Source: Tubulanus polymorphus
Taxonomy: Eukaryota; Animalia; Nemertea
Direction of reading: 5' to 3'
Length of the DNA: 64,000 nt
NCBI RefSeq assembly: GCF_964204645.1
Contig: NC_134034.1
Span: forward strand, 8,196,962-8,260,961
Under the pieces are notes generated by a model, which saw only the letters and a program-made list of their open reading frames with translations, searched no databases and was not told the DNA's origin. The position numbers were made by a program, and so were the translations under genes. Shown piece after piece: positions 29,433 to 60,411 of this stretch (position 1 is its first letter; every line of letters begins with the position of its first letter).

Positions 29433-30633
29433 AAACTAGGGGTCCAGGGACACCATGCCCACTTGGGAAGTGGTTTCAAATGCTCAACGATTTCAATATT
29501 CAACGCCCCCTGGTGACAATATACTAAAACCAATGACCTTGAAACTCACCACAATCATAGAACATGTCATATGCTACGATTTTGTAATTGATTGTGATAA
29601 CAAAATATGCCTCGTTACCAATCTAATATGGAAATACTAAGTTATTCTACAAGTCAACGCCCCCTGGTGACCATATTGCAATTGATCATGGTAACAAAAT
29701 ATGCTTAGGTACCAATCTAATAAGGAAATACTAAGTTATTCTACTATTCAACGCCCCCTGGTACCATAAAGAATAACTTATGTCCTTAAAACTCACCACA
29801 ATCATGGACAATGTCATGAGCTACAACTTTGCAATTGATTGTGGTAACTAAATATGCATTGGTACAAATATAATATAGGAATACTAAGATATTATATTAT
29901 TCAACGCCCCTTGGTGGCCATATACAAAAACTAATGACCTTGAAACTCACCACAATCATAGAACACCTTATAAGCTACAACTTTCTAATTCATTGCAGTA
30001 ACAAAATATGCGTAGGTATCAATATAATGTCGAAAAACTTTTTCCCACCTACGAATGAGTACCGATAACACCAAGATGGCCGCCAATTGCGTCATAATTG
30101 GCTGACTAAAATACCTATCTCAGGTATAAAACATCCCTTTCCAAAGAATACCCTTCAGCAATTGTAATGAGAAATGGCAAACCAGTAGGAAGCTACAGGA
30201 CTCAGAATTTGGGCCAAAATTGACATTTTTGGGCACTAAAAAGGTCATAGGACGGCCATCTTGAGTCCGATCGACCCAATTTTTGTTATGCTTATGGGCC
30301 CTGAGGGGATTCGAATACATACGAAAGATCAAGGTAATTGATCAAGGCGTCTTCAAAATTTCCCTCAAAAAGTTCAAAAATGTATAAAAGTGCTGATTTT
30401 GGCAAACAACAATGGCTGCCAGTCGGCCATCTTGATTCTGACAGGGCCAGTTTTTGGGCTGGAGATGTGTCTAGGGTAGATACATGTGTAACCCAAATAT
30501 CAAGACATTACATTGAAGCGTCTTCAAAACTTCCCAAAATAACTGGATTCCGTCTACGGACGGACGGACGGACGATGGACGAAAAGTGAACGCAATAGCC
30601 CGCTGGGACTTAAGTCCCAAGTGGGCTAAAAAC
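29433..30633 (+). mobile_element. HINE-like family A, complete copy
   Basis: Same 5' end, tandem units, core and terminal hairpin as 39909-41164. Confidence 0.75.
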
Positions 30634-39908: not shown

Positions 39909-41164
39909 AAACTAGGGGTCCAGGGATACCATGCCCACTTGGGAAGTGGTTCCAAATGCTCAACAATCTAACAATTTCAATATTCAACGCCCCCTGGTGA
40001 CCATATACAGAATCCAATGACCTTGAAACTCACCACAATCATAGAACATGTCAGCAGCTACGATTTTGTAATTGATTGTGATAACAAAATATGCCTTGTT
40101 ACCACTTTAATATGGAAATACCAAGTTATTCTACTATTCAACGCCCCCTGGTGACCATATTCAAAACCCAATGACCTTGAAACTCACCACAATCATAGAA
40201 AATGTCACGAACTATAACTTTGTAATTGATCATGGTAACAAAATATGCCTAGGTACCAATATAATAAGGAAATACTAAGTTATTCTACTATTCAACGCCC
40301 CCTGATGACCATATAGAATAACTAATGACCTTGAAACTCACCACAATCATAGAAAATGTCACGAACTATAACTTTGTAATTGATTGTGGTTACAAAATAT
40401 GCATTGATACGAATATAATATAGAAATACTAAGTTTTGCATTATTCAACGCCCCCTGGTGGCCATATACAAAAACCAATGACCTTGAAACTCACCACAAT
40501 CATAGAACACGTTATGAGCTACAACTTTCTAAATGATTGTGGTAACAAAATACGCTTAGGTATCAATATAATGTGGAAAATACTTTTTCCCACTTACGAA
40601 TGAGTACTGCTGACACCAAGATGGCCGCCAATTGCGTCATAATTGGCTGATGAAAAATACCTGTCTCAGGTATAAAACATCCCTTTCCAAAGAATACCCA
40701 TCACAAATTGCAATGAGAAATGATAAACCAGTAGGAAGCTACAGGACTCAGAATTTGAGCCAAAATTAACATTTTTGGGCACTAAAAAGGTCATAGGACG
40801 GCCATCTTGAGTCCGATCGACCCAATTTTTGTTATGCTGATGGGCCCTGGGGGAATTCACATATATCCGAAAGATCAAGGTAATTGATCAAAGCGTCTTC
40901 AAAATTTCCCTCAAAAAGTTCAAAAATGTGTAAAAAGTGCTGATTTTGGCGAACAACAATGGCTGCCAGTCGGCCATCTTGAATCTGACAGGGCCAGTTT
41001 TTTGGCTGAAGATGTGTCTAGGGTAGATACATGTGTAACCCAAATATCAAGACATTACCTTGAAGCGTCTTCAAAACTTCCCAAAATAACTGGATTCTGT
41101 CTACGGACGGACGAAAAGTGAACGCAATAACCCGCTGGGACTAAAGTCCCAAGTGGGCTAAAAA
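39909..41164 (+). mobile_element. Helentron/HINE-like non-autonomous element, family A (complete copy with about 4 internal 154-bp tandem units)
   Basis: Starts AAACTAGGGGTCCAGGGA; unit starts at 39981, 40135, 40289, 40442; conserved core; (GGAC)n microsatellite; 3' hairpin CCCGCTGGGACT-AA-AGTCCCAAGTGGG then TAAAAA; no TSD, A-rich flanks. A partial duplicate of the 3' part follows at 41227-41468. Confidence 0.75.
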
Positions 41165-41631: not shown

Positions 41632-41819
41632 CTGAAAAAAATAACAGAAATTACTTTTACATGACATACAACAGAACAGGGAATCCTGCGTTGAAGCGAG
41701 CGATACAAAATGGCGGCCGGCACTTGTTATTGAATGACGACGCGCTGTGCTGCTCGCAATGAGATCAATATTTAACAATTATTCATCGGTCTAGCGGTGA
41801 ATTATTGTTTTCATATTCT

Positions 41820-42026
41820 GACGAAGCGTGAGCGTTTAGGAGAAACTTTACAGGCGTTGAGACGGCAACACTAGGTCACACGAGCACCTGCTACAAGTAT
41901 TCCCCTTCTATATTCAAATACAGCGGGATTTCTTAATGACGTTACACAGCGGTTGAACGACGTTCGGTGACCTAGTGTTGCCGTCTCAACACCTGTAAAG
42001 TTTTTCCTATACGCTCACGCTTCGCC
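41820..42026. mobile_element. MITE/fold-back element in p23 intron 1
   Basis: Inverted repeats of about 60 bp, CGAAGCGTGAGCGT...CACTAGGTCAC / GTGACCTAGTG...ACGCTCACGCTTCG. Confidence 0.7.
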
Positions 42027-42540
42027 AACTACCTTTTCTTTTATATTACTAAAGACATTTCACAAATTGATAGTGTCTCACAGTCGGATGAAATAATAGG
42101 ATATATATCTGTCATATCACTAGTAAGTGTCATACAAAATAAAAGTAAAAACGAAGTTTGTTCAGTATTTTGTGAGGTCGCCGTGTGTGGAGCCAGCGGC
42201 CATCATCTTTTTAAACAGTTAGGCCGTTTTTTCTCGGATTCATTGCAGATTAATGAGTGAAAACACAGATACACTATCAAAAACCCCAGCAACTTTATCC
42301 CAAGCCCATCGGCGAGTGCCTGTGGTTGACTGTCTTCGTTCGGTTGACTTGACTACTTTATTTAGTTTTACGACCCACAGTCAGACTTTTTAGGCTAATC
42401 TATTGGTCCTAATCGATTATCAAAGAAGCATCTAAACTTATCGCTTGGGGCGCATCAGCTTCTCTTTTCCAGTGTCAATCCTGATATCCAAGCGCCTACG
42501 ACGTCGTCACAAAATATCTCGAAAATGGAAAAATACCCAC

Positions 42541-43620: not shown

Positions 43621-45284
43621 GCTAGAGGAACGATAAAAATTTTGACATTGGCCCGTCTTTTGGTTTTCCCGAGCGAGAAGTCAAAACTTTTGGTTTTCTC
43701 GCGCGAGAAAAACAAAAGATTTGAATTCTCTTGAATTTTTTTATCATACCTCTAGTACTCTGGAAAATGTCAAGTTTTCAATTACGGGGAAGTAAACTAA
43801 AGAAATGAAAACAAAAATACCTTGGAATGACTACAGAGGCAAAGGTGTGAAAAGGTGTGATTAAAATGATGGTAGAAATTAAAAAAACTAACCTTTTTGC
43901 ACATAATGAGATTGAAACATAACGTTTGCATTTTAGATTGAAAATCAAGACGGCATTACAAACATAAAATTCGATGAAAACACGGAGGACTAAGAAAGAT
44001 TTAAAAAAGTTTTTTTGATAGTTTTTTGGTGATTTTTGCAGAATGCTGGGCGGATCCGTACTCTATATTAATAAATGTAAAGCTATCTTGCCTAGTTTTG
44101 CCCATCAGCGCCAAAACTCGAAATGGCAAAAGACGCTCTGCAGCCATAGAATGAAAGCTAGGCAAGATATCTCTACATTTTAAATTTCACTTGAAAGGAG
44201 GCGTACAGTTCCTGAAATGTTTGGAATTTTCCGAGAATTATTTCTTAAAATAACAAACTTAAGGTCCCTGAACTTCTACGTGTGCGGCAAAAACTGGCCA
44301 CATGTTTTTATATCGCTTTCATGTCGCATTGTTGCAAATTTGAGAAATGAATTGTACATAACTGAAAACAAGAGATTCACACGGTTTAAATGATGCTAAA
44401 ATTCTAAAATGCTAAAATGATGCTAAAATTGTCAAAATCCAACTATGGATCAATGAAATATGATATAACACTCACCGCAAATTGCTTTTAAAGAAGAGAA
44501 AAAGAATGACTCCAACATAGGACAACAATCGATTTTGTTGGCTGAAGTTGAAATGTTTGCTTCTGAAAGTTCAAAGTATGATTGGTCATGTTTTAATAGC
44601 GTTCCACAGGCTTGCGTAAAAATTGTATAGTAGCCCTCGTACACAATTTATAATAATAGTGACAGTGACCACGTTGGGGCTGGTCTAGTAGCATGACTGA
44701 GCAATTCACAGTAGTACTGTACTCAAACTGTGTATTGCTATATAAAGAGGTATACAGACATTAAGCTGACGCATGCGATGCACTTGGATATTTAATTCTA
44801 GTCTGAGGTAGGCCTTAAGATATGAAATATATTTAACTGTTCTTTTTGCGTTTTAAAAATTGAATGAGAAAGAGAGTTGAGGAGGGTCAGTAACAGTTAT
44901 CTTTGTTTACTACAGACAAAGATAACTTTTATAAGATAGAGAAGAGGGAACTTTACATTCAATACCTCCATAACTAAAAGGTACGTAGGACCTATAGGTA
45001 CGTACTATCTCAAAATATATACATCAAGAAAAATTAATACAGTCCGTGGTAATACCAACAAAGTGTCTCCAGGTATTCGTTTAATCACTGATAAAGACTA
45101 TATAGATTACTACTGAGATAATAAATCCCGGGAATAAATCCGTCTATTTTTAACTCAATAGGCGTTGGTACAGCCAAATACATGTAGATACTGTTTTGGT
45201 AGCTTTGATTGTAGGATGTGCTCTTTTATAAAATGTCCTACAATTTTCAGATTTTATGGTATCCATTCTACGAAGGCTGACACG

Positions 45285-46802
45285 ATGAGACGTTTCTTTC
45301 TTCGATTTTCTAACTATTGGGGATTAACTTTCGTTATCGCAATCGTTTTTTTCGTAGCATGTAATATTTCGTGGAAGCACAAACCTTTAAAATCAATATC
45401 CCCTCCTAAGGATGTATTACTAGAAAGAGATGGAAATTTGGCACATACCCAGCGTACGATGGACGTTCGAAATATCTTAAAATTGGAATTAGATAAAATG
45501 TTCAAATCAAGCCAGCCGAATTCAAAGCCCATTAGTTTTGACAGGCATGCTAAACTTCAGTTTCCCCATGAAAGTAAATCTCGGATACTAGCATCTAAAT
45601 CGGCTTTTCCAAAAATCCGTGGCGGTAACCGTGTGGCAAAGCAACTCCGCAGTCATCCGAAATCAACAGAATACAAAACTCGTGCTAGTAACTGGAGTCG
45701 TAATGTCACCGAAAGTGCAAAATCAAGTGCAAAATCTACGAATTTTGCACAAAAAAAAAATTCATATTTGAAATTTCAACCTAGAAAATCTGAAAAAATC
45801 CAAGCATTGGACATACGTAAGTTAACCGACGGGAATAGAAACCGAAAATACGCAAAAAAAGCTGTTGTAGCTGAAGCCGGGCATGTTGACGTCTCCGTAA
45901 AGAAGACAGGTGACGGTGTTCGGCGCGATTCGTGTAATGCATGCAATTCAAATTCGTTTCAATATATCATTAATGAAAATGACATGTGTATAAAAAGTAA
46001 CGGTAATGTAGATCTATTACTGATGGTGCTAAGTACCGCCAAGAATCGACCTCAAAGAGAAATTATTCGAGAAACGTGGGCGAGCATAAGTAAAGGTAAC
46101 AAAGCTACTGTACGCCATGTGTTTCTGTTTGGAACGGTTGCTCCTGTCTATACAGCCGTCTTGGATTTTGAGCGGAGAAAATACCACGACATCATACAAG
46201 CCGATTTCGTCGATAGTTATTATAATTTGACCAGGAAATCACTTATGGCGTTTCATTGGGCGAGTACATATTGTGAAAACGCGAAGTATATTCTTAAAAT
46301 AGACGATGACATGTGGGTGAATACACCGAGAATGTTGGACATGATCAGAAGAGGGGAAATGGGGAAATTCATAAATGATAGAAACTACGGAGGTTCTTGC
46401 TACTCTGGGAGTTTACCGATCCGAAATCCTAATTCAAAGTATTATGCGTCACGACAGGCATGGCCACACGATCAATATCCAGCATTCTGTGATGGTCAAA
46501 CCGGGTACATCTTAACGCCTAAAGTCGCTGCGGATTTGTACCACATGTCGAAAAACGTTCCATTTTTTCACCTGGAAGACGTATACATTGGACTGTGTAT
46601 GAAAGCATTGGGTAATGAAATCAAACCTATTAACGGTTTCTTTAAGGGATTAAGTGGAACAGTGAACGATATGTGTTTCTACAAGAAAGAGGTTTTTACT
46701 GTACATAAGGTATCAGTAGAACGATTGAGAACAATCTGGAACACGAGATGTTATGCATCAGACATTTCTTCGCAAACTATTCAAGGTGTTTTCAGCAGTT
46801 AG
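45285..46802 (+). CDS. Beta-1,3-galactosyltransferase-like protein (GT31, Galactosyl_T), type II membrane protein, about 505 aa, single coding exon
   Basis: ATG at 45285 follows a ttttcag acceptor ending at 45250. N-terminal TM segment (WGLTFVIAIVFFVAC) and GT31 motifs R-x-x-IRETW, QADFVDSYYNLTRK, YILKIDDD (DxD), LEDVYIGLC. Confidence 0.93.
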   Translation: MRRFFLRFSNYWGLTFVIAIVFFVACNISWKHKPLKSISPPKDVLLERDGNLAHTQRTMDVRNILKLELDKMFKSSQPNSKPISFDRHAKLQFPHESKSRILASKSAFPKIRGGNRVAKQLRSHPKSTEYKTRASNWSRNVTESAKSSAKSTNFAQKKNSYLKFQPRKSEKIQALDIRKLTDGNRNRKYAKKAVVAEAGHVDVSVKKTGDGVRRDSCNACNSNSFQYIINENDMCIKSNGNVDLLLMVLSTAKNRPQREIIRETWASISKGNKATVRHVFLFGTVAPVYTAVLDFERRKYHDIIQADFVDSYYNLTRKSLMAFHWASTYCENAKYILKIDDDMWVNTPRMLDMIRRGEMGKFINDRNYGGSCYSGSLPIRNPNSKYYASRQAWPHDQYPAFCDGQTGYILTPKVAADLYHMSKNVPFFHLEDVYIGLCMKALGNEIKPINGFFKGLSGTVNDMCFYKKEVFTVHKVSVERLRTIWNTRCYASDISSQTIQGVFSS

Positions 46803-46870
46803 CAGCAAAAATCCCCTTCAAAGTGTCCCCCACGTGGTACGATAACCACACTCAAACGTGGTGAATAGAG

Positions 46871-47221
46871 GATAAGATAAAAACCCACTATTTACAATTA
46901 AAAGAAATCTAAAATCGAGAATTTATTTATTGAAACAATCTAAAATATAAGAGCACGACGTTTCGATCTCACACTAGAGATCACCGTCAGGTGTGAGATA
47001 TTGACTAAAAACAGGGGTATATATACAGAGGAAATATATATTTATAGAGAATATATAGAGAATATATATATAGAGAAATATATATTCAATATCTCACACC
47101 TGACGATGATCTCTAGGGTGAGATCGAAACGTCGTGCCCTTATATTTTAGATTGTTTCAATATATAAATTCTCGGATTTTAGATTTCTTTTTATTTGTAA
47201 ATAGTGGGTTTTAATCTTATC
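46871..47221. mobile_element. Inverted pair of Penelope-type pLTR remnants just after the galactosyltransferase stop codon
   Basis: Arms 46871-47004 and 47086-47221 are reverse-complementary around an AT/GA-rich spacer; each arm carries a hammerhead motif. Confidence 0.75.
47096..47137 (+). ncRNA. Minimal type I hammerhead ribozyme
   Basis: cac-CTGACGA-t-gatctc-tagggt-gagatc-GAAA-cgtc-gtg: intact core, 6-bp stem II, GUC cleavage triplet. The minus-strand twin at about 46954-46993 has CTGACGG (core substitution). Confidence 0.78.
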
Positions 47222-49932
47222 CCCCACCTTTTGAATGGGGTGCAAGTAAATACAATCTCATTGTACAAGTTGAATTGAAAATACCACAAATTAACAGTTC
47301 TTTTATACTATCACAGCTCAAATATATCACGGGACGTGAACAAGTTAAAACAGTTCGTTGCAAAGTTCAAATTAAAACTGCACTAGCGTGAATTTGAGAT
47401 ATTTCAAATTAAAAGTTCATTATTTCTAATAATTCATGGTATCGCACAGTGAACAATAACAAAAGTTAAAAAGAGTTCATAGTACATAAATATTCCAGAT
47501 AAAATCTAATACATTTCATTAATTCTATTAATTCTACAAATTCTACAATTCTGAGTATTTTTCTACGAATTCTATCTAAGAATAAAGAAATGGGATATTC
47601 ATGTATTGCAGTTTTATTGAAAATGAATAGAATTAGAGATTCTCGCTTTGAAATGTTCTCAAAAAATTACCAAGGAGATTACCTAGGGGATTTTTACCTA
47701 AATTCGTTTTCAGCAAATATAGATAATAAATCTTACACTATGCACTCATTCAGTAATCGGTTAACGCGTTATTTCTTTTTGGACTACTTTTTTCTTTTTC
47801 TGAAAAGTTCTTGTTCTTACGATATTAATTAACGTTTACGGTTTAAGTAAGCCGCAACACGTATATCGCCGTACCGCGAGCCCGTGACACAGCGGCGAAT
47901 CGGTATCACCGATATTTGCATTGTGTGCCAAGCGACGCGATGCGAATTTTCAAGCCGGCGATTTCACTCTAATCAATCAACAAGCTTCAGTGGAACCTCG
48001 TTATTACGAGATGGCCTATTACGTAACTCGCGTATAATGTATGGGCCAAATTTAGAACAAATTCTAGTAAAAATCAGTTTAATATGAACACGATGATACG
48101 AAAAATTCGTTAAAACGTTAATTTCCTTATAGTAATTCAATGCGGTTAAAACGATGGCTGATCGCCTCTATCAGACTCAATACGGGTATAGCAATAACAA
48201 TTTTAACATACTTTTTTGTATGTGAATGTTCTTCGATTGAAAGGAATGAGAGACATTTGTCCTGAAAACGACGGAACTGTATTCTCGAGGTGCTTCTGTC
48301 CAGAAGGAACGAAATGAACTACAACATTGACTTGCTCACAGCACGGAATTTAGTGAATCTGGATCCACGAGGATCGGCGTAGGGTTCGATTCCCCCGCAA
48401 AATCGGAGAGGCTCACACCAGTTTCATTTGTGAAACAGAAAGAAATAGAAATTTACATAGAAAAATAAAACAGTTACAGAGTTAAAAATTGTACACATGT
48501 ATTTTTGAAACAAGACGATTTATTTCAGCAAAATAGTTTCAGTGATTCACCTTTTATTGCTCGGGTTAGTTTTACTACCAACGGGTGGCGCGGTATGTAA
48601 ATTTCACATAAATCACCAACTTTCGGCAATTAGCGGTACTTGAGACCACTTGAAAACATCATAGTCAGTAATTCAGTTATGGTAGTATGAAAATAAAAAG
48701 TTGATATAAATATATATGATATGATATGATATCTTTTTTAATGTTCAGTATAAACGTTGAATGTATATGTTCGTCACGTTTTGCATGTTAGTACCAATAC
48801 GTGCACGCGTCCATTCGAATGAAATGTGCACGTTACAGACTCAAATAAAAACGTTTACCGCGTTCATAGCCCCACGTTAAAATCTTTTGCGTTTAGAGGG
48901 AAATTTCAAAGTTAGCTCGCTACCTACAATAAAAATCGGACAAGACTTTTATAAGCGCCAAATTTGAATGTATGAGTAGTACTAACGAAGGATTCAGGAA
49001 ATACCCCTTGTCATTTCTAAAAACATTTAACCGGTAATTAGACAGTATTGGTGTAGCTTGCACAGGTAAGTGTTACTGTTGTTATATTGAGGTTCAGGGC
49101 AAATATTTTATTACATTATAATTAGGCCTATTTGATACCGAACACGACTGTGTTGTTTCTGAAACAGATAAATATAGCTATGTGGTCAGTACTGGTCAAG
49201 AATTGGTCAGTTGAATAGTTGTAATATCAAAGCTAGCACCATATCTAATTATTTGAAACCAAACACGACTTTGTTACTTCTAAAATTGGGCAAATAACTT
49301 TAAGGTCAGTATTGGTCAAGAATTGGTCACTTAATTAGTTGCTAAATCATAGCCTGCGCCATAGTCGCTCGACACCCAAACACTATTTTATTGCGTACTA
49401 ATGCTTATAGATTACTTCAGTAAATAAAGTAATTTGTCTATTTTAGAAGTAACACAGTCGTGTTTGGTGTCAACTTGAATGTTTAGTTATCAAAAATAAA
49501 GAATTGTTTTGTAATTGTGGCGCTGACACGCGGCTGCAGCCGCGATGCTAGGCTATATAGGTCAATGATCCAGCTATTTAATTTTATTGATTTAAGACAA
49601 ACAAGTGATTTTTTTCTATAAGGCTGATCCCACAGGTCGTCATTTACTAAAGTATCATTTGGAAAGTAAATCTCAAAAAGTAGGAATTAGAGGGTATTTT
49701 GACCTTTACGCCTAATTTAGTCCTAATTCGGTTCAATCTAAGTCTCGGATTGTTGTCCCTTACATTCCTTGTTTACATAAATTGAAATCGAATCTTAAAG
49801 CCCTAAAACACCGAAATCATTTTCAAATATGATAATGGAATTTCTATTCACTAAAAGCAATCTTATGTCTTACTTAGTATAGATGCTGGTGTTTATAAAA
49901 TCTGTTGTCTGGATTGTGATAAAATTCAGGTC

Positions 49933-50336
49933 AGTAATAGGGATAATAGGCTTTCAAGCCAAAGGTCGAACGGTCGAGCTCATTAAAAAACAAAACATTA
50001 AAAGTAATTTAAAACTATAATATATTTTCATAACCGTGTGCATTTTATATTATAACTAAATATTTATTCTAAGATATCAATAATTTAAAAAGCATATTGT
50101 ATTAAATCAATTGGTCGCTCCACTTCGCTACCGCTCCGCTCCGCGACCAATTGATTTATTTACAATACACAAATTCATATAATCAAATATATTTTAATAA
50201 TAATAATTATTCTATTATTCAACTGAAATACACACGGTTATGAAAATATATTATAGTTTTAAATTACTTTTAATATTTGTTTTTAATGAACTCGACCATT
50301 CAACCTTTAACCTGAAAGCCCATTACCCCTATTACT
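49933..50336. repeat. 404-bp terminal palindrome: arms 49933-50040 and 50231-50336 around a central stem-loop at 50095-50167
   Basis: Arms are reverse-complementary with 9 substitutions and 2 single-base indels; inner stem TAAATCAATTGGTCGC / GCGACCAATTGATTTA with a GC-rich loop. Confidence 0.9.
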
Positions 50337-50542
50337 CTTAAAATAATCATATACATGAATAACATTTAAATTGACAGATTATTCAATATAAAAGTATATA
50401 TTTACAACATTATTTCAATATTCATATTTGTGTGAGTTAGATTTTTAAACATTAAAAGTGTTAGTAAAGTGTGATTGAAATAATACATGATATAAATCAT
50501 TGAACTTCTAAAATCAATTTTAATAAAAAATTTAGTATTAAA

Positions 50543-50719
50543 ATGGAAGCAAATAAGTACTACTGTCCAACATGTAATATCAATATAGATAAATCCCAAA
50601 AAGCAAGACACAATAAAACTAAAACACATTTAGAGAATAAATTGAAACTAGAATATAAAGATGATATATTAGAAACTAAATTAGATGAATTAAACAATGA
50701 AAAAGAAACATACCAATAA
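50543..50719 (+). CDS. 58-aa ORF with one C2H2-type zinc finger (MEANKYYCPTCNINIDKSQKARHNKTKTHLENK...)
   Basis: Translated by hand (below the 60-aa ORF-track cutoff); C-x2-C...H-x5-H pattern. The C-terminus may be truncated by the rearrangement starting at 50712. Confidence 0.55.
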   Translation: MEANKYYCPTCNINIDKSQKARHNKTKTHLENKLKLEYKDDILETKLDELNNEKETYQ

Positions 50720-50808
50720 GGGTAAAAAAATATTTTTAAGCGTAAGGTTTCAGCGAACTCTAACTCTTTTTGAATTTTAACCTATTTTAATAAAAAGTTG
50801 ATATATAA

Positions 50809-51875
50809 ATGTGCTCAAGATTAATTAAAGTTCCCGCGAAAGACATGAGTAATAAATATATAAATTCAATATTATATTATTTAACTGTTAACAATAATTT
50901 AGCAGATATTTCAGGAGTAAATATAAATAAGTATTATAAATCTGAAAATAATGAATTAATTGAAACATCAGATATATTTTACGATAATATAATGCTATAT
51001 AAAATCATGTTAGAAAAAGAAATTATTAAAGAAAATAGAACAACTTTTCTAAACGTTAATCAGAGAAAGATAACGCATTATGAAATTAAAGAATGTTTTA
51101 ATCAAGGAGATATTTTATTGGATAATTTAGCTATAAAAATTACACGTGTTTTAACAATTCATGATGATAATTCAAAATCATATATATTAAGTAGAATTAA
51201 TCAAGAATTGAAATTAACAGATTATATTGCTGTATTTAAAATTTCATTATGCAATCAAAATTTAAATGAATAAATACAGAAAATGGATAATATTGAAAAA
51301 TTATTAAATGAAAAAAATTACAATACATTAGATGTAGATGTGACACAAGATTTTAAAGGATCATTTAATTCAGATGAAATAAAATCAATGTTCGAAAATA
51401 GAAAATATAAAGTTCTAAAAGAATTTTCCAATAGTTGTGTTCCAGCATTACATAAGGATGATAAAATAAAGATCTATAATAAAACAGCATGTCAATTCAA
51501 ATCTCCTGGCGTAAATATAAATTTCGGTTCAAATTTAATGAGTTACATAAATTGCTATCAAGAAAGGTTCAAAGAATCATTTGAAAAATCAATTGAAACA
51601 GGATTAATTAGAATTGAAATAACAAGTATTTCATTTAAAAGAGGATTAAAAGAGATGGGAAAAATAAAACAATACTTAAAAAAAGAAATATTTACTATTC
51701 ACCTACATATTTACAACTTAAATCATTATTTGATGAGGTTCAACAGACTGTATGTATTTATGATGAGGTTCAACAGACTGTATGTATTTATGATTTGATT
51801 GAAAAATGCTTTTATTTCTGTTATTATGGTGATTTATGAGCAAGGAAATTTATAGGATATAAATCTAGGATAAGT
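50809..51875 (+). pseudogene. Disrupted ORF of a putative Rep_trans-like rolling-circle initiator, left copy
   Basis: ORFs 50809-51273 and 51283-51798 are in the same frame, split by a TAA that reads TTA in the inverted copy. Motifs DVDVTQDF, KIKIYNK, GLIRIEIT. A frameshift near 51690 and a 30-bp tandem duplication at 51731-51790. Confidence 0.6.
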
Positions 51876-52993
51876 CTTTTTGATTTCTATTCGCTTCAAT
51901 AATGAATTCTGATTTATCATCATTTTGATCAATTGTTAGGTATAAACATGGGATATTCTTAATTGTAAACATTGATAAAACAAGTAAAAAGGAGGACTCT
52001 TCAATATTTTTACTTATCCTAGATTTATATCCTATAAATTTCCTTGCTAATAAATCACCATAATAACAGAAATAAAAGCATTTTTCAATCAAATCATAAA
52101 TACATACAGTCTGTTGAACCTCATCAAATAATGATTTAAGTTGTAAATATGTAGGTGAATAGTAAATATTTTCTTTTTTTAAGTATTTTTAAGTATTTTT
52201 CCCATCACTTTTAATCCTCTTTTAAATGAAATACTTGTTATTTCAATTCTAATTAATCCTGTTTCAATTGATTTTTCAAATGATTCTTTGAACCTCTCTT
52301 GATAGCAATTTATGTAACTCATTAAATTTGAACCGAAATTTATATTTACGCCAGGAGATTTGAATTGACATGCTGTTTTATTATAGATCTTTATTTTATC
52401 ATCCTTATGTTATGCTGAAACACAACTATTGGAAAATTCTTTTAGAACTTTATATTTTCTATTTTCGAACATTGATTTTATTTCATCTGAATTAAATGAT
52501 CCTTTAAAATCTTGTGTCACATCTATATTAATTCATTTAAATTTTGATTGCATAATGAAATTTTAAATACAGCAATATAATCTGTTAATTTTAATTCTTG
52601 ATTAATTCTACTTAATATATATGATTTTGAATTATCATCATGAATTGTTAAAACACGTGTAATTTTTATAGCTAAGTTATCCAATAAAATATCTCCTTGA
52701 TTAAAACATTCTTTAATTTCATAATGCGTTATCTTTCTCTGATTTACGTTTAGAAAAGTTGTTCTATTTTCTTTGATAATTTTTTTCTCTAACATGATTT
52801 TATATAGCATTATATTATCGCAAAATATATCTGATGTTTCAATTAATTCATTATTTTCAGATTTATAATACTTATTTATATTTACTCCTGAAATATCTGC
52901 TAAATTATTGTTAACAGTTAAATAATATAATATTGAATTTATATATTTATTACTCATGTCTTTCGCGGGAACTTTAATTAATCTTGAGCACAT
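51876..52993 (-). pseudogene. Inverted second copy of the same ORF (deletion of about 60 bp near 52525), extending into the 136-bp spacer
   Basis: The 52523-52993 protein is nearly identical to that of 50809-51273; ORF 51865-52092 continues the C-terminal part (IEKCFYFCYYGDLLARKFIG...). Confidence 0.65.
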
Positions 52994-54086
52994 TTATATA
53001 TCAACTTTTTATTAAAATAGGTTAAAATTCAAAAAGAGTTAGAGTTCGCTGAAACCTTACGCTTTAAAATATGTTTTTACCCTTATTGGTTTTTTAATGA
53101 GCTCGACCGTTCGACCTTTGGCTTGAAAGCCTATTATCCCTATTACTCAGGTCGCTCCCTCAGTAGTCGTATATAAGAACGGAGGAAAGGCAATAGGGAT
53201 CGAACATGTTATTAATCATAAGAATATGAAATATTATTAATCATTAGAATAGGAAACATATTATTAATAAAAAACCCCAATGTGCTGGCTACCCATGTTT
53301 AGTATACTAATGGTCGCGGATTTAATTTTGAAAGTTCTCAATAGTTTTCCCGTCTAATAGCATTACCCGACGCCACATAGTTGAGTCGGCCTTAATAAAT
53401 TAACATTCCAAATCCTGCATCAATTGTAACCTTGGTTGCTCTCCCATAATATACTTATGTCCAAGTTCATTTTCTCTCTCGCCAATATCACCTAATTGGT
53501 GTGCAATAGTGGTTATCGTTCCCTAACTCGGATATGTTGTATTTCGAGCCATTTCTTGACAATGGTTTTTAGTTGAAAACCGAAAGTTCGTATTCTCTAT
53601 AAATTTTAACGTTTCGATATTTTTATTTTTCCGACTTCTTGATTGTGGAACTGACATTATACTCCGCTTTCACGATTTATTGCGGAGTTTGACCTCGTCG
53701 CAAACGTATGATACTCCATTTCCATTACTATAATGTATTCGTGAATTGAAAACATATAGCGTTTTATCATCGGGGAAAAAGGTTTTAATGGATATTTTGA
53801 TTGAAAACTATGCATACTTAGTCTACTTTTCATCTACGTCAAGTCGTGTCATCCTATGATAGTTCTGTGATGACATCATGTATAATCCATTCTCCTAACA
53901 GTAAACAACGTAGTGACTTCGACTCTTCGGTGTTGAGATAATTGCTCTTAGATATACCGTATATGTTTGTGATATCAGGCCTTCTAAACGATACCAGTAC
54001 ACTGATTGTTTACAGAATCAACGTAGAATAAATCTATCACGTATAATAGTGTTAATTTGTGCGAACGATTCCTGGATATATTGCAA

Positions 54087-55121
54087 ATGGCATCGACAAA
54101 GATTCCTCAGTCTACTATCAGTCCCCTTTATGACGGGCATTTCTGTCCAAGAAACTCGTTCAATGCCGGAATCTACCTTTTCAATGTGTTTGGGGTTGGG
54201 TGTATGTGCGTTATAGGATTTACTTGCAACGTCCTAACTGTTTTCACAATCAATCGTTTTCAAAACCGCAGTGTTTCCATATACCTCATCCAGGTACTAT
54301 CTGTTATTGATGTCAGTTATCTTATAGCATGTTTTATATACTTCACATTACGTTTTGGGGTATATTACCTAATGAAAGGGGAAATGGCCTTACGACTTGA
54401 AGGCCGCAACATCTATCCGGGTTTCTATTACATCGCATTAGACATATATTTTGCCACGCTGCAAGTTCGCAATCAGTTTGTGGCAGTTGTTTCCACTGAC
54501 CGTTTTATCAATGTGTTCTTCCCGTTCTTAGCTCGGCGTCATCTCAATCGAAGGAAATATAATATTCTCATCGTTTGCATCATAATTTTTGCTATCATTT
54601 GTCGCTATTCACGATATATCCCACTGACAAAGTTTACTCTTGATCGTGTCAATATTTGTGACCATTCTCTTGAACTTTCTGTTCGACGTGCCCCTATTTT
54701 CCCACCGAAAGGACCATTTGATACTTACATTGTAGCTAAAAACTACGAAATCCTTGTAGCTTACGGTCCATTAGGCACTATTCTATTATCAAATTTTCTT
54801 ATCTTGTTAAAAATACGTTCAGCGACGAAAAAACGTGCGGCAATTGCCAAAAAAGGCGAGAAACACGATAACACTGCGACGCAAATGGTTTTTATTATTG
54901 TTGCCATTTTTCTAATCTGCGAAGGTGCTCCAACTATAGATCGAATTATCACAAATTTTGGAGTAAGTGCCACCAATTCACCGTTTATTCTCGGACTACG
55001 TAAAGTGTCACTTTATTTTACAATTCTAGACTCAATTCTCAATTTTTTCGTTTATGTTGCAGTGAATAATCTATTCAGAAATACATTACTTCTCATGATG
55101 AGAAAAAAATATCGAGGTTGA
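54087..55121 (+). CDS. Rhodopsin-class 7TM GPCR, FMRFamide/peptide-receptor-like expanded family, about 344 aa, single coding exon
   Basis: Seven hydrophobic segments, GFTCNVL in TM1, LSVID in TM2, STDRF (DRY-like) after TM3, FLICEGAP in TM6, LNFFVY...FR in TM7/H8; upstream acceptor tttacag near 54015. Confidence 0.88.
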   Translation: MASTKIPQSTISPLYDGHFCPRNSFNAGIYLFNVFGVGCMCVIGFTCNVLTVFTINRFQNRSVSIYLIQVLSVIDVSYLIACFIYFTLRFGVYYLMKGEMALRLEGRNIYPGFYYIALDIYFATLQVRNQFVAVVSTDRFINVFFPFLARRHLNRRKYNILIVCIIIFAIICRYSRYIPLTKFTLDRVNICDHSLELSVRRAPIFPPKGPFDTYIVAKNYEILVAYGPLGTILLSNFLILLKIRSATKKRAAIAKKGEKHDNTATQMVFIIVAIFLICEGAPTIDRIITNFGVSATNSPFILGLRKVSLYFTILDSILNFFVYVAVNNLFRNTLLLMMRKKYRG

Positions 55122-58834: not shown

Positions 58835-60411
58835 AAACTAGGGGTCCAGGGACACCATGCACACTTGGAAGTGGTTTCAAATGCTCAACAACCTAACAAT
58901 TTCATTATTCAACGCCCCCATCCAATGACCTTAAAAAAATTCAAAATGAACTTGGAAATGACCACACAACATGTCAGCATCTATGATTTCGAAATTGATT
59001 GTGGTAACCAAATATGCCTAGAAACCACTATAATATGGAAACACTAAGTAATTCTACTATACAACGCCCCCTGATGACTATATGCAATGCCCAATGACTT
59101 TGAAACTAACCATAATCATAGAACAAGTCATGAGCTACAACTTTTCAATCGATCATGGTAACAAAATGTGCCTAGGTGCCAATATAATAAGGAAATATTA
59201 TGTTATTGTATTGTTCCATGCCCCCTGGTGGCCATATACCAAAACCAATGACCTTGAATCTCACCACAATTATAGAACATGTCATGAGCTACAACTTTCA
59301 AATTGATCGTGGTAACAAAATATGCATAGGTACGAATATGATATGGAAATACTAGGTTATTGAATTGTTCAACGCCCCTTGGTGGCCATATACAAAATCA
59401 ATGATCTTGAAAACTCACCACAATCATAGAACATGTCATGAGCTACAACTTTCCAATTGGTTGTGGTAACAAAATATGCATAGGTACAAATATAATATAG
59501 AAATACTAAGTTCTACTTTTCAATGAGCCCCGGTGACTACCGGTATATAGAATAACTTATGACCTCGAAAATCACCACAATCATTGAATATGTCATGAGC
59601 TACAACTTTTCAAATTGATTGTAGTAACAAAATATGCATACGGTAGGTACAAATATAATATAGAAATACTAAGTTATTGCATTGTTCAGTGCCCCTTGGT
59701 GGCCATACACAAAAACTAATGACCTTGAACCTCACCACAATCATAGAACACATTATGAGCTACAACTTTCCAATTGATTGAGGCGACAAAATATGCTTAG
59801 GTATCAATATAATGTGGAAAATACTTTTTTCCACCAACGAATGAGTACTGACGACACCAAAATGGCTGCCAATTGCGTCATTATTGGCTGATCAAAAAAT
59901 ACCTGTTTCAGGTATAAAAGATCCCTTTTCAAAGAATACCCATCACAAATTGCAATGAAAAATGGCAAACCATTCGGAAGTTGCAGGACTCAGAATTCAG
60001 GCCAAAATTGACATTTTTGGGCACAAAAAAGGTCAAAGGACGACCATCTTGAGTCCGATCGACCCAATTTTTTCTCATGCTTATGGGCCCTCGGGGGATA
60101 CAAATATATCTGAAAGATCAAGGTAATTAATAAAAGTGTCTTCAAAATTTCCCTCGAAAACTTCAAAAATGTGTAAAAAGTGCCGAATTTGGCGAACAAC
60201 AATGGATGCCGATCGGCCATCTTAAATCTGACAGGGCCAGTTTTTGGGTTGAACATGTGTCTAGGGTAGATGCATGTACAAGCTAAATATCAAGACATTA
60301 CCCAGAAGCATCTTCAAAACTTCCCAAAATAACTGGATTCCGTCTACGGACGGACGGACGAAAAGTGAATGCAATAGCCCGCTGGGACTAAAGTCCCAAG
60401 CGGGCTAAAAA
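58835..60411 (+). mobile_element. HINE-like family A, complete copy with about 6 tandem units
   Basis: Same structure; longer, more diverged array. Confidence 0.75.

Follow-up and report, generated by a model that had tools for sequence, protein, structure and literature searches.

Initiators of the Rep_trans family (PF02486) include the RepC and RepD proteins of the pT181 family, RepSTK1 and the gene II proteins of inoviruses, and are built on a two-lobed, TBP-like fold. In RepD, Y191 is the nucleophile, D46, D142 and E214 are the metal ligands, and R189, K193, D146 and R212 are conserved (PMC4797284). According to one recent paper the family appears restricted to bacteria (PMC13107129), and the TBP-fold initiators named in the available part of another are bacterial and archaeal only (PMC13595969). 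The first of these also describes Rep-Arvir of archaeal viruses and plasmids, a divergent TBP-fold initiator that was recognised by structure and has an essential hairpin (PMC13107129). Eukaryotic rolling-circle transposons and ssDNA viruses, in the literature covered, all use HUH enzymes, and both 2026 papers, as far as their available text extends, place the TBP-fold class in bacteria and archaea (PMC13107129; PMC13595969). Replitrons end in short direct repeats and mostly lack a target duplication (PMC10288648, partial text), and Mavericks, or Polintons, carry 6-bp target duplications and end in (AGT)2...(ACT)2 or (AG)3...(CT)3 (PMC8097293, partial text). Strand-selective folding is described for the integron attC site, an imperfect palindrome in which a nucleotide skew makes one strand fold better (PMC5027507, partial text), and GCGNNAGC mini-hairpins are DNA structures known from single-strand replication origins (PMC13037366, partial text, also the source of the motif definition used here).

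The window analysed here, the whole stretch of 64,000 nucleotides from Tubulanus polymorphus, contains a 404-base palindrome (49933-50336) that forms the left end of a 3,215-bp element (49933-53147) with the ends AGT...ACT. The original prediction had called the palindrome terminal, and this is borne out in the reads, where 1,673 loose ends, joined to unrelated flanking sequence, start at 49933 and set the element boundary. The sequence CAGGTC is found on both sides (49927-49932 and 53148-53153, plus strand) as a 6-bp target-site duplication, known from this one insertion. A short C2H2-like zinc-finger ORF follows the palindrome (50504-50719, plus strand; Pfam zf-U1 at E 7e-4, below the cut-off); in many other copies the ORF continues beyond this point into another finger-like motif, with 441 loose ends behind 50717. 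It is followed by a broken Rep_trans-like gene (50809-51875, plus strand), which is cut off at about half its length and carries stops at 51271-51273 and 51837-51839, a frameshift near 51670-51700 and a 30-bp tandem duplication at 51731-51794. The gene region is repeated in inverted orientation, as a snap-back, at 51865-53090 on the minus strand, and this second copy too is damaged by deletions and frameshifts; the arms of the duplication (50712-51875 and 52012-53090) span about 1.1 kb. The right end (53086-53147, minus strand) is identical to the outer arm of the palindrome at 61 of 62 bases and is without the hairpin, the inner arm and the zinc finger. The present copy is a derivative that is no longer functional, with half a genome doubled back on itself, and its structure is of the kind that template switching on a displaced strand would be expected to give.

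Several other features lie in the same neighbourhood. The element is flanked by a galactosyltransferase gene (45165-46802) and a single-ORF rhodopsin-family receptor gene (54027-55121), which mark the host as an animal. Just to its left is a separate repeat (49132-49550) with internal direct repeats and an inverted repeat (49132-49173 and 49432-49473) in which six of seven mismatches are G·T on the plus strand and none is a transversion; the folding energies of the whole region are equal between strands. Near 49528-49543 this repeat has a GC hairpin followed by CTAG, which we take to resemble a Helitron 3' end. The window also holds a 154-bp tandem repeat in three arrays (29575-30028, 39981-40755 and 58893-59997) and two more palindromic MITE-like repeats (46870-47222 and 41819-42027) without strong mismatch polarity.

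The palindrome is organised as two long arms around a weaker middle and an inner hairpin. The outer arm (49933-50045) begins 5'-AGTAAT and the inner arm (50226-50336) ends in ATTACT, where a further 335 reads stop and give way to unrelated flanks. Between these arms there are 100 paired positions and 10 transitions (3 A/G and 7 C/T); an apparent transversion at 49992 arises only from the way in which two 1-base indels are aligned. The hand alignment behind the original prediction had counted nine substitutions, with the three A/G correct and one C/T too few. All 10 transitions are A·C if the plus strand folds and G·T if the minus strand folds (p=0.002 against chance). Only two are at CpG (49967 and 49971), as had been reported, which rules out CpG decay as their source. 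As a control, the element's own long inverted duplication, with breakpoint columns dropped by hand, gives 4 plus-strand A·C, 4 plus-strand G·T and 7 transversions, and the arms differ from it with a Fisher p of 5e-4, or 0.023 when only transitions are compared. Among the window's distant inverted repeats with at least 8 transitions, one of seven is also one-sided (9:0, plus 7 transversions). The claim that every mismatch is a minus-strand G·T thus stands for the outer arms but fails over the whole palindrome, where the BLAST alignment, including the poorly paired middle, contains 16 A·C, 2 G·T and 21 transversions. This middle zone is A+T-rich (50046-50094, opposite about 50168-50225), and its 50046-50092 portion has 33 identical positions, 8 transversions and 3 transitions. 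Folded as DNA, the 404 bases reach -100.6 kcal/mol on the plus strand (z -18.0) and -116.9 on the minus strand (z -24.5), with none of 100 shuffles as good on either strand, so the minus strand is the more stable by 16 kcal/mol, the direction the original prediction called for.

The center of the palindrome is an inner hairpin (50095-50167, minus strand) with a perfect 14-bp stem (50105-50118 and 50143-50156) and a purine-rich 24-nt loop (50119-50142), whose minus-strand sequence had been quoted correctly. When the loop is folded on its own axis, the minus strand forms 6 G·A, 1 G·G, 1 G·T and 3 Watson-Crick pairs, whereas the plus strand has C·T and C·C mismatches; 10 of 11 minus-strand pairs are Watson-Crick, G·T or G·A (shuffle p=0.014). 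The dyad axis runs exactly through the center of GCGGTAGC (50134-50127, minus strand), assigned by sequence as a GCGNNAGC mini-hairpin motif. A mini-hairpin sequence had been predicted at the tip and does exist there, although the relevant one is this on-axis motif, while the two GCGNAGC sequences lie off the axis. The computed energies of the inner hairpin alone (ViennaRNA) are -21.2 and -19.9 between strands, a small difference of 1.3 kcal/mol from a program that does not model the G·A-type pairs of the loop. Energies, arm polarity and on-axis loop pairing together support folding of the minus strand as single-stranded DNA. The tip had been put forward as a candidate nick site, and a candidate priming site is as plausible.

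Raw reads under the same species label, covering the region 49800-51500 with about 12% of one run, allow the family to be viewed beyond this copy; a marine metagenome run that contributed just 7 short records was left aside. Read depth is 2-16 in the flank, about 2,300 in the arm, about 1,500 in the hairpin center, about 1,700 in the zinc finger and 30-60 in the broken gene. By this measure the hairpin ends are present in hundreds of copies and the gene in few, and since hairpin depth is about 40-70 times gene depth, most hairpin copies are without the Rep-like gene. The copies derive from few founders, so these hundreds are not independent. Common variants in the paired arms occur at 49943 (1557 of 2950 reads), 49948 (1540/3069), 49958 (1482/3537) and 50041 (696/1699), and compared with the inner arm of the present copy, three of them restore a Watson-Crick pair and one adds a minus-strand G·T. 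Among the best 40 of 273 variants, all with a share of about 40% or above in at least one run, these four arm variants all keep the minus-strand polarity, and none is in the inner arm. Reads sort to the better-fitting arm and the copies share ancestry, so that the arm variants are not a covariation test. Our inference is that the A/C arm type, which lies mainly on the outside, and the G/T type, mainly on the inside, are both common across the family; in the pooled reads both adjoin unrelated flanks (1,673 plus 360 reads against 335). From these read data, minus-strand folding looks like a family trait. A second palindrome interior also occurs on the same arms: 588 reads have loose ends after 49989 and 318 have them ahead of 50290, and the two sets seem to be reverse complements. 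This interior may belong to the opposite end of full-length elements or represent a subfamily.

The broken gene was read through, with X at the stop, to obtain a protein query. The read-through protein has three relatives at about 50% identity, and a profile search collected 253 clusters at E up to 0.001, mostly of 600-1,000 aa. No Pfam family scored above cut-off in the 52 relatives scanned, and PF02486 was matched in none of the window ORFs, four close proteins or 52 relatives. Among named sources, Planococcus citri and Schistocerca americana carry relatives on contigs of chromosome scale, and one Baumannia MAG has a related protein that may be insect-derived. Relatives also occur on short A+T-rich metagenome contigs. 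One of 185,579 prokaryote genomes was matched by a short peptide pattern that misses divergent members; the 3.6-kb MAG contig concerned is the same as one of the metagenome contigs, and its binning is probably wrong. Searches of IMG/VR, by protein or by terminal pattern, gave no relatives, nor did phage and plasmid collections or PHROGs; in the ESM Atlas no score exceeded 0.83. Sequence searches of the PDB gave nothing significant, with a TBP match at E 0.013 falling outside the domain.

Across 106 aligned sequences, the columns D59, D177, T179, D181, K221, Y223, N224, K225, G265, R268 and E270 are nearly invariant. Among aligned relatives, D59 is conserved in 97/100, D177 in 105/106, D181 in 106/106, Y223 in 105/106, K225 in 106/106, R268 in 103/105 and E270 in 100/103. 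D59, D177, D181, Y223, K225, R268 and E270 follow the order of RepD D46, D142, D146, Y191, K193, R212 and E214, an equivalence drawn from order, spacing and alignment end points and not from a residue-level superposition. The pattern D...DxTxD...KxYNK...RxE likewise runs in the order of RepD D46, D142/D146, R189/Y191/K193 and R212/E214. The pT181 RepC motifs RLDLAFD...RIYNKK...RVE, with 49 residues from the first to the second, compare with DVDVTQD...KIYNKT...RIE in the window, with 46. A tyrosine in a YxK motif and three candidate acidic metal ligands are present as D59, D177, Y223, K225 and E270 in 97-100% of aligned relatives, and the predicted catalytic codons on the plus strand are D59 (50983), D177 (51337), Y223 (51475) and E270 (51616). 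The position of RepD R140 is instead D in 75 of 106 relatives, and the RepD T176-Y178-G180 motif is unmatched, with C-L-T in most relatives. A comparison by hhalign of the profile with single-sequence RepC was not significant.

The model of the window's own domain has a pLDDT of 90, and its first and second Foldseek matches in the PDB are 4cwc and 4cwe (RepDE/RepDN, staphylococcal Rep_trans) at E 4e-3 and a probability of 0.90-0.91, with RepSTK1 at rank 17 and no match for this model below E 1e-3. With VIA-align, 4cwe gives the longest alignment (168 residues, Z 7.1, rmsd 6.0, range 51-292 on 39-236). Judged by the end points of this range alone, D59 would correspond to D46/D9 and E270 to E214. 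These scores (Z 6.6-7.1) are tied with TBP and ribosomal S6 and are below a half-domain phosphomutase match. The whole-domain matches are TBP chains and 4cwe, 4cwc and 4cij at Z 6.6-7.9, middling scores that are consistent with a TBP-like fold, and the intact relative P0154 is modelled with the same fold. Fold model and residue pattern together make it rather likely that the broken gene encodes a Rep_trans-like nickase. The C-terminal domain of intact relatives (P0154 residues about 625-716) is modelled as a small beta-barrel, for which a VIA match to 2cqa at Z 5.7 and a weak match to phage ssDNA-binding proteins suggest an OB-like fold; such a domain is missing from the window copy. In the Rep-like protein no helicase domain was detected, and no HUH motif is found among the conserved columns. 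The Rep-like protein of the original prediction is real, and by its modelled fold and residue pattern it groups with the TBP-fold Rep_trans initiators and not with AAV or HUH Reps, so the analogy with GAGC Rep-binding elements in AAV is left without support. An AAV-type GAGC binding element was rejected because the protein is not HUH.

Among the described systems closest to the locus is Rep_trans. The two have in common the TBP-like fold, the order of the conserved residues and, as proposed here, a hairpin origin used on one strand. The window family differs in having no Pfam match, identity of about 10%, a replaced R140 and a Y-to-E spacing of 47 residues versus 23, and its intact relatives, with 600-1,000 aa and an extra C-terminal part, reside in animal chromosomes. 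Rep-Arvir has similar Foldseek neighbours (viral TBPs and Inoviridae proteins) and, from the part of its description available, is likewise divergent, identified by structure and associated with a hairpin, but it has a KHYYM motif and a wHTH domain (PMC13107129), whereas the window family has a YxxK-type motif and eukaryotic hosts. The element shares with Mavericks the 6-bp target duplication and inverted termini; its ends AGTAAT...ATTACT agree with the (AGT)2...(ACT)2 motif (AGTAGT...ACTACT) at five of six bases. In contrast to Mavericks it is 3.2 kb long, with no polymerase (protein-primed), integrase, ATPase or capsid gene in its ORFs or in the Pfam scan of window ORFs, and has instead a long internal terminal hairpin and a nickase-like gene. 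Helitrons and Replitrons are similar in being eukaryotic, in terminal hairpins, in many non-autonomous copies and in a single-stranded phase, here proposed. They use HUH enzymes, whereas a TBP-like fold is predicted here, and the 62-bp inverted ends and 6-bp duplication contradict their termini, including those of Replitrons in the available text of PMC10288648; membership was rejected on both counts. The attC site, a much shorter bacterial tyrosine-recombinase substrate, is an analogy of design only.

From these observations, we slightly favor the explanation that the palindrome is a one-strand hairpin origin in a single-stranded phase, started by a Rep_trans-like nickase, of an element inserted by a Maverick-type integrase. 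An intact copy would make the TBP-fold enzyme, whose tyrosine would nick the minus strand, as RepD does at its hairpin. Host enzymes would then displace the minus strand, which would fold back into the long hairpin. On this strand the G·T and G·A pairs would be tolerated, while the plus strand would pair less well, and the hairpin could in this way serve as a strand-specific signal, with its tip as the nick site or the site of second-strand priming. The linear double-stranded product would be inserted by a Maverick-type integrase supplied in trans. A tyrosine nickase is not expected to make a 6-bp duplication, a point that separates DDE integrases from tyrosine enzymes. The 6-bp duplication and the Maverick-like ends, neither of which figured in the original prediction, therefore point to a separate integrase as the probable agent of insertion, and one acting in trans because the element encodes none.

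The weakest step of the proposed mechanism is the link between the gene and the hairpin. None of 12 metagenome loci of distant relatives (23-30% identity), many of them partial, has a comparable hairpin, and two of the 12 have terminal inverted repeats that are long, nearly perfect and free of G·T bias. These two Rep-like-gene contigs (L001 4692-5494 and L009 2997-3924) have inverted repeats of 104 and 257 bases that enclose loops of 595 and 414 bases, one of which holds a 175-aa ORF, and such termini could belong to free linear replicons, either as hairpins or as invertible ends. In other metagenome relatives, a PriCT-2 and SF2 helicase gene, herpes origin-binding-like, neighbors the Rep-like gene (L007 4164-6803), and a C2H2 zinc-finger gene lies directly upstream of it, as in the window (L008 630-1541).

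Of the alternatives, the one that survives best, and that we nonetheless consider unlikely, is a deamination footprint without function, in which the minus strand of a founder was exposed single-stranded, acquired A-to-G and C-to-T changes and was then amplified as a family. It predicts the same polarity as minus-strand folding, since all 10 arm differences belong to the two deamination classes on that strand, with ordinary methyl-C decay no explanation for a set in which two of 10 are at CpG, and amplification from one founder would yield the observed read pattern. What it leaves unexplained are the on-axis GCGNNAGC motif and the G·A-paired loop on the same strand, and the element's long inverted duplication has no such bias. 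Even this alternative implies a single-stranded phase.

Also improbable is that the element is a non-autonomous Maverick derivative or foldback MITE, with two diverged terminal repeats head to head in the 404-bp unit, mobility from a Maverick integrase alone, a Rep-like gene as cargo and a polarity due to chance. The 6-bp duplication and AGT...ACT ends fit this reading, the reads that end at 50336 beside unrelated flanks suggest that some copies may be the palindrome alone, and the Rep-like gene is far rarer than the hairpin. It is also consistent with a right end that inserted, or persisted, without the hairpin, and with the one unrelated one-sided repeat in the window. Chance must, however, cover 10 of 10 differences without a transversion, four of four concordant variants and the axis motif, and no polymerase, integrase or capsid Pfam match was found in 20 ORFs scanned at the loci of relatives or in the window ORFs scanned.

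Less probable again is an RNA hairpin, in which antisense transcripts of the element end would fold through G·U pairing and be processed into small RNAs for silencing of the family. Long hairpin RNAs show one-sided G·U pairing, and RNA tolerates G·U better than DNA tolerates G·T, so that one-sided pairing over 110 bp would fit such a transcript. Against this, the stem and the integration end are at exactly the same place, an Rfam search gave no match, and the tip motif is described as a DNA structure in the accessible text of PMC13037366. An endogenous virus of parvovirus type, with an HUH Rep and a terminal hairpin like that of AAV, would account for the imperfect terminal palindrome with GAGC repeats, and possibly for two arm types beside unrelated flanks as flip and flop forms, but is very improbable and already largely refuted by the predicted fold, as the protein models are TBP-like and not HUH, no helicase domain was detected, no capsid gene was seen and no relatives were found in IMG/VR. 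Membership in the Parvoviridae was rejected, with neither an HUH and SF3 helicase Rep nor a capsid gene found.

No eukaryotic Rep_trans-type element was found in the open-access literature searched, and none in the available portions of PMC11296320 and bioRxiv 10.64898/2026.10.13.758929; an unclassified database entry for such an element may exist. More tentatively, the element could stand for a new group of mobile DNA in eukaryotes and, with it, for a eukaryotic lineage of TBP-fold, Rep_trans-like rolling-circle initiators. Its members would be small replicons with hairpin ends that multiply via a single strand by means of their own tyrosine nickase and, as satellites, use the integrases, and perhaps the capsids, of Mavericks; they would occur in the chromosomes of insects and other animals and as short A+T-rich metagenome contigs. 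If this is true, a family of at least 253 protein clusters of this fold and residue pattern, located in animal chromosomes beside a one-strand hairpin and Maverick-like ends, would extend the TBP-fold initiator class to eukaryotes and would define a new kind of element, possibly a Maverick satellite. The hairpin is a defined substrate, so the nickase idea is directly testable, and one-sided G·T pairing may mark elements with a single-stranded phase genome-wide.
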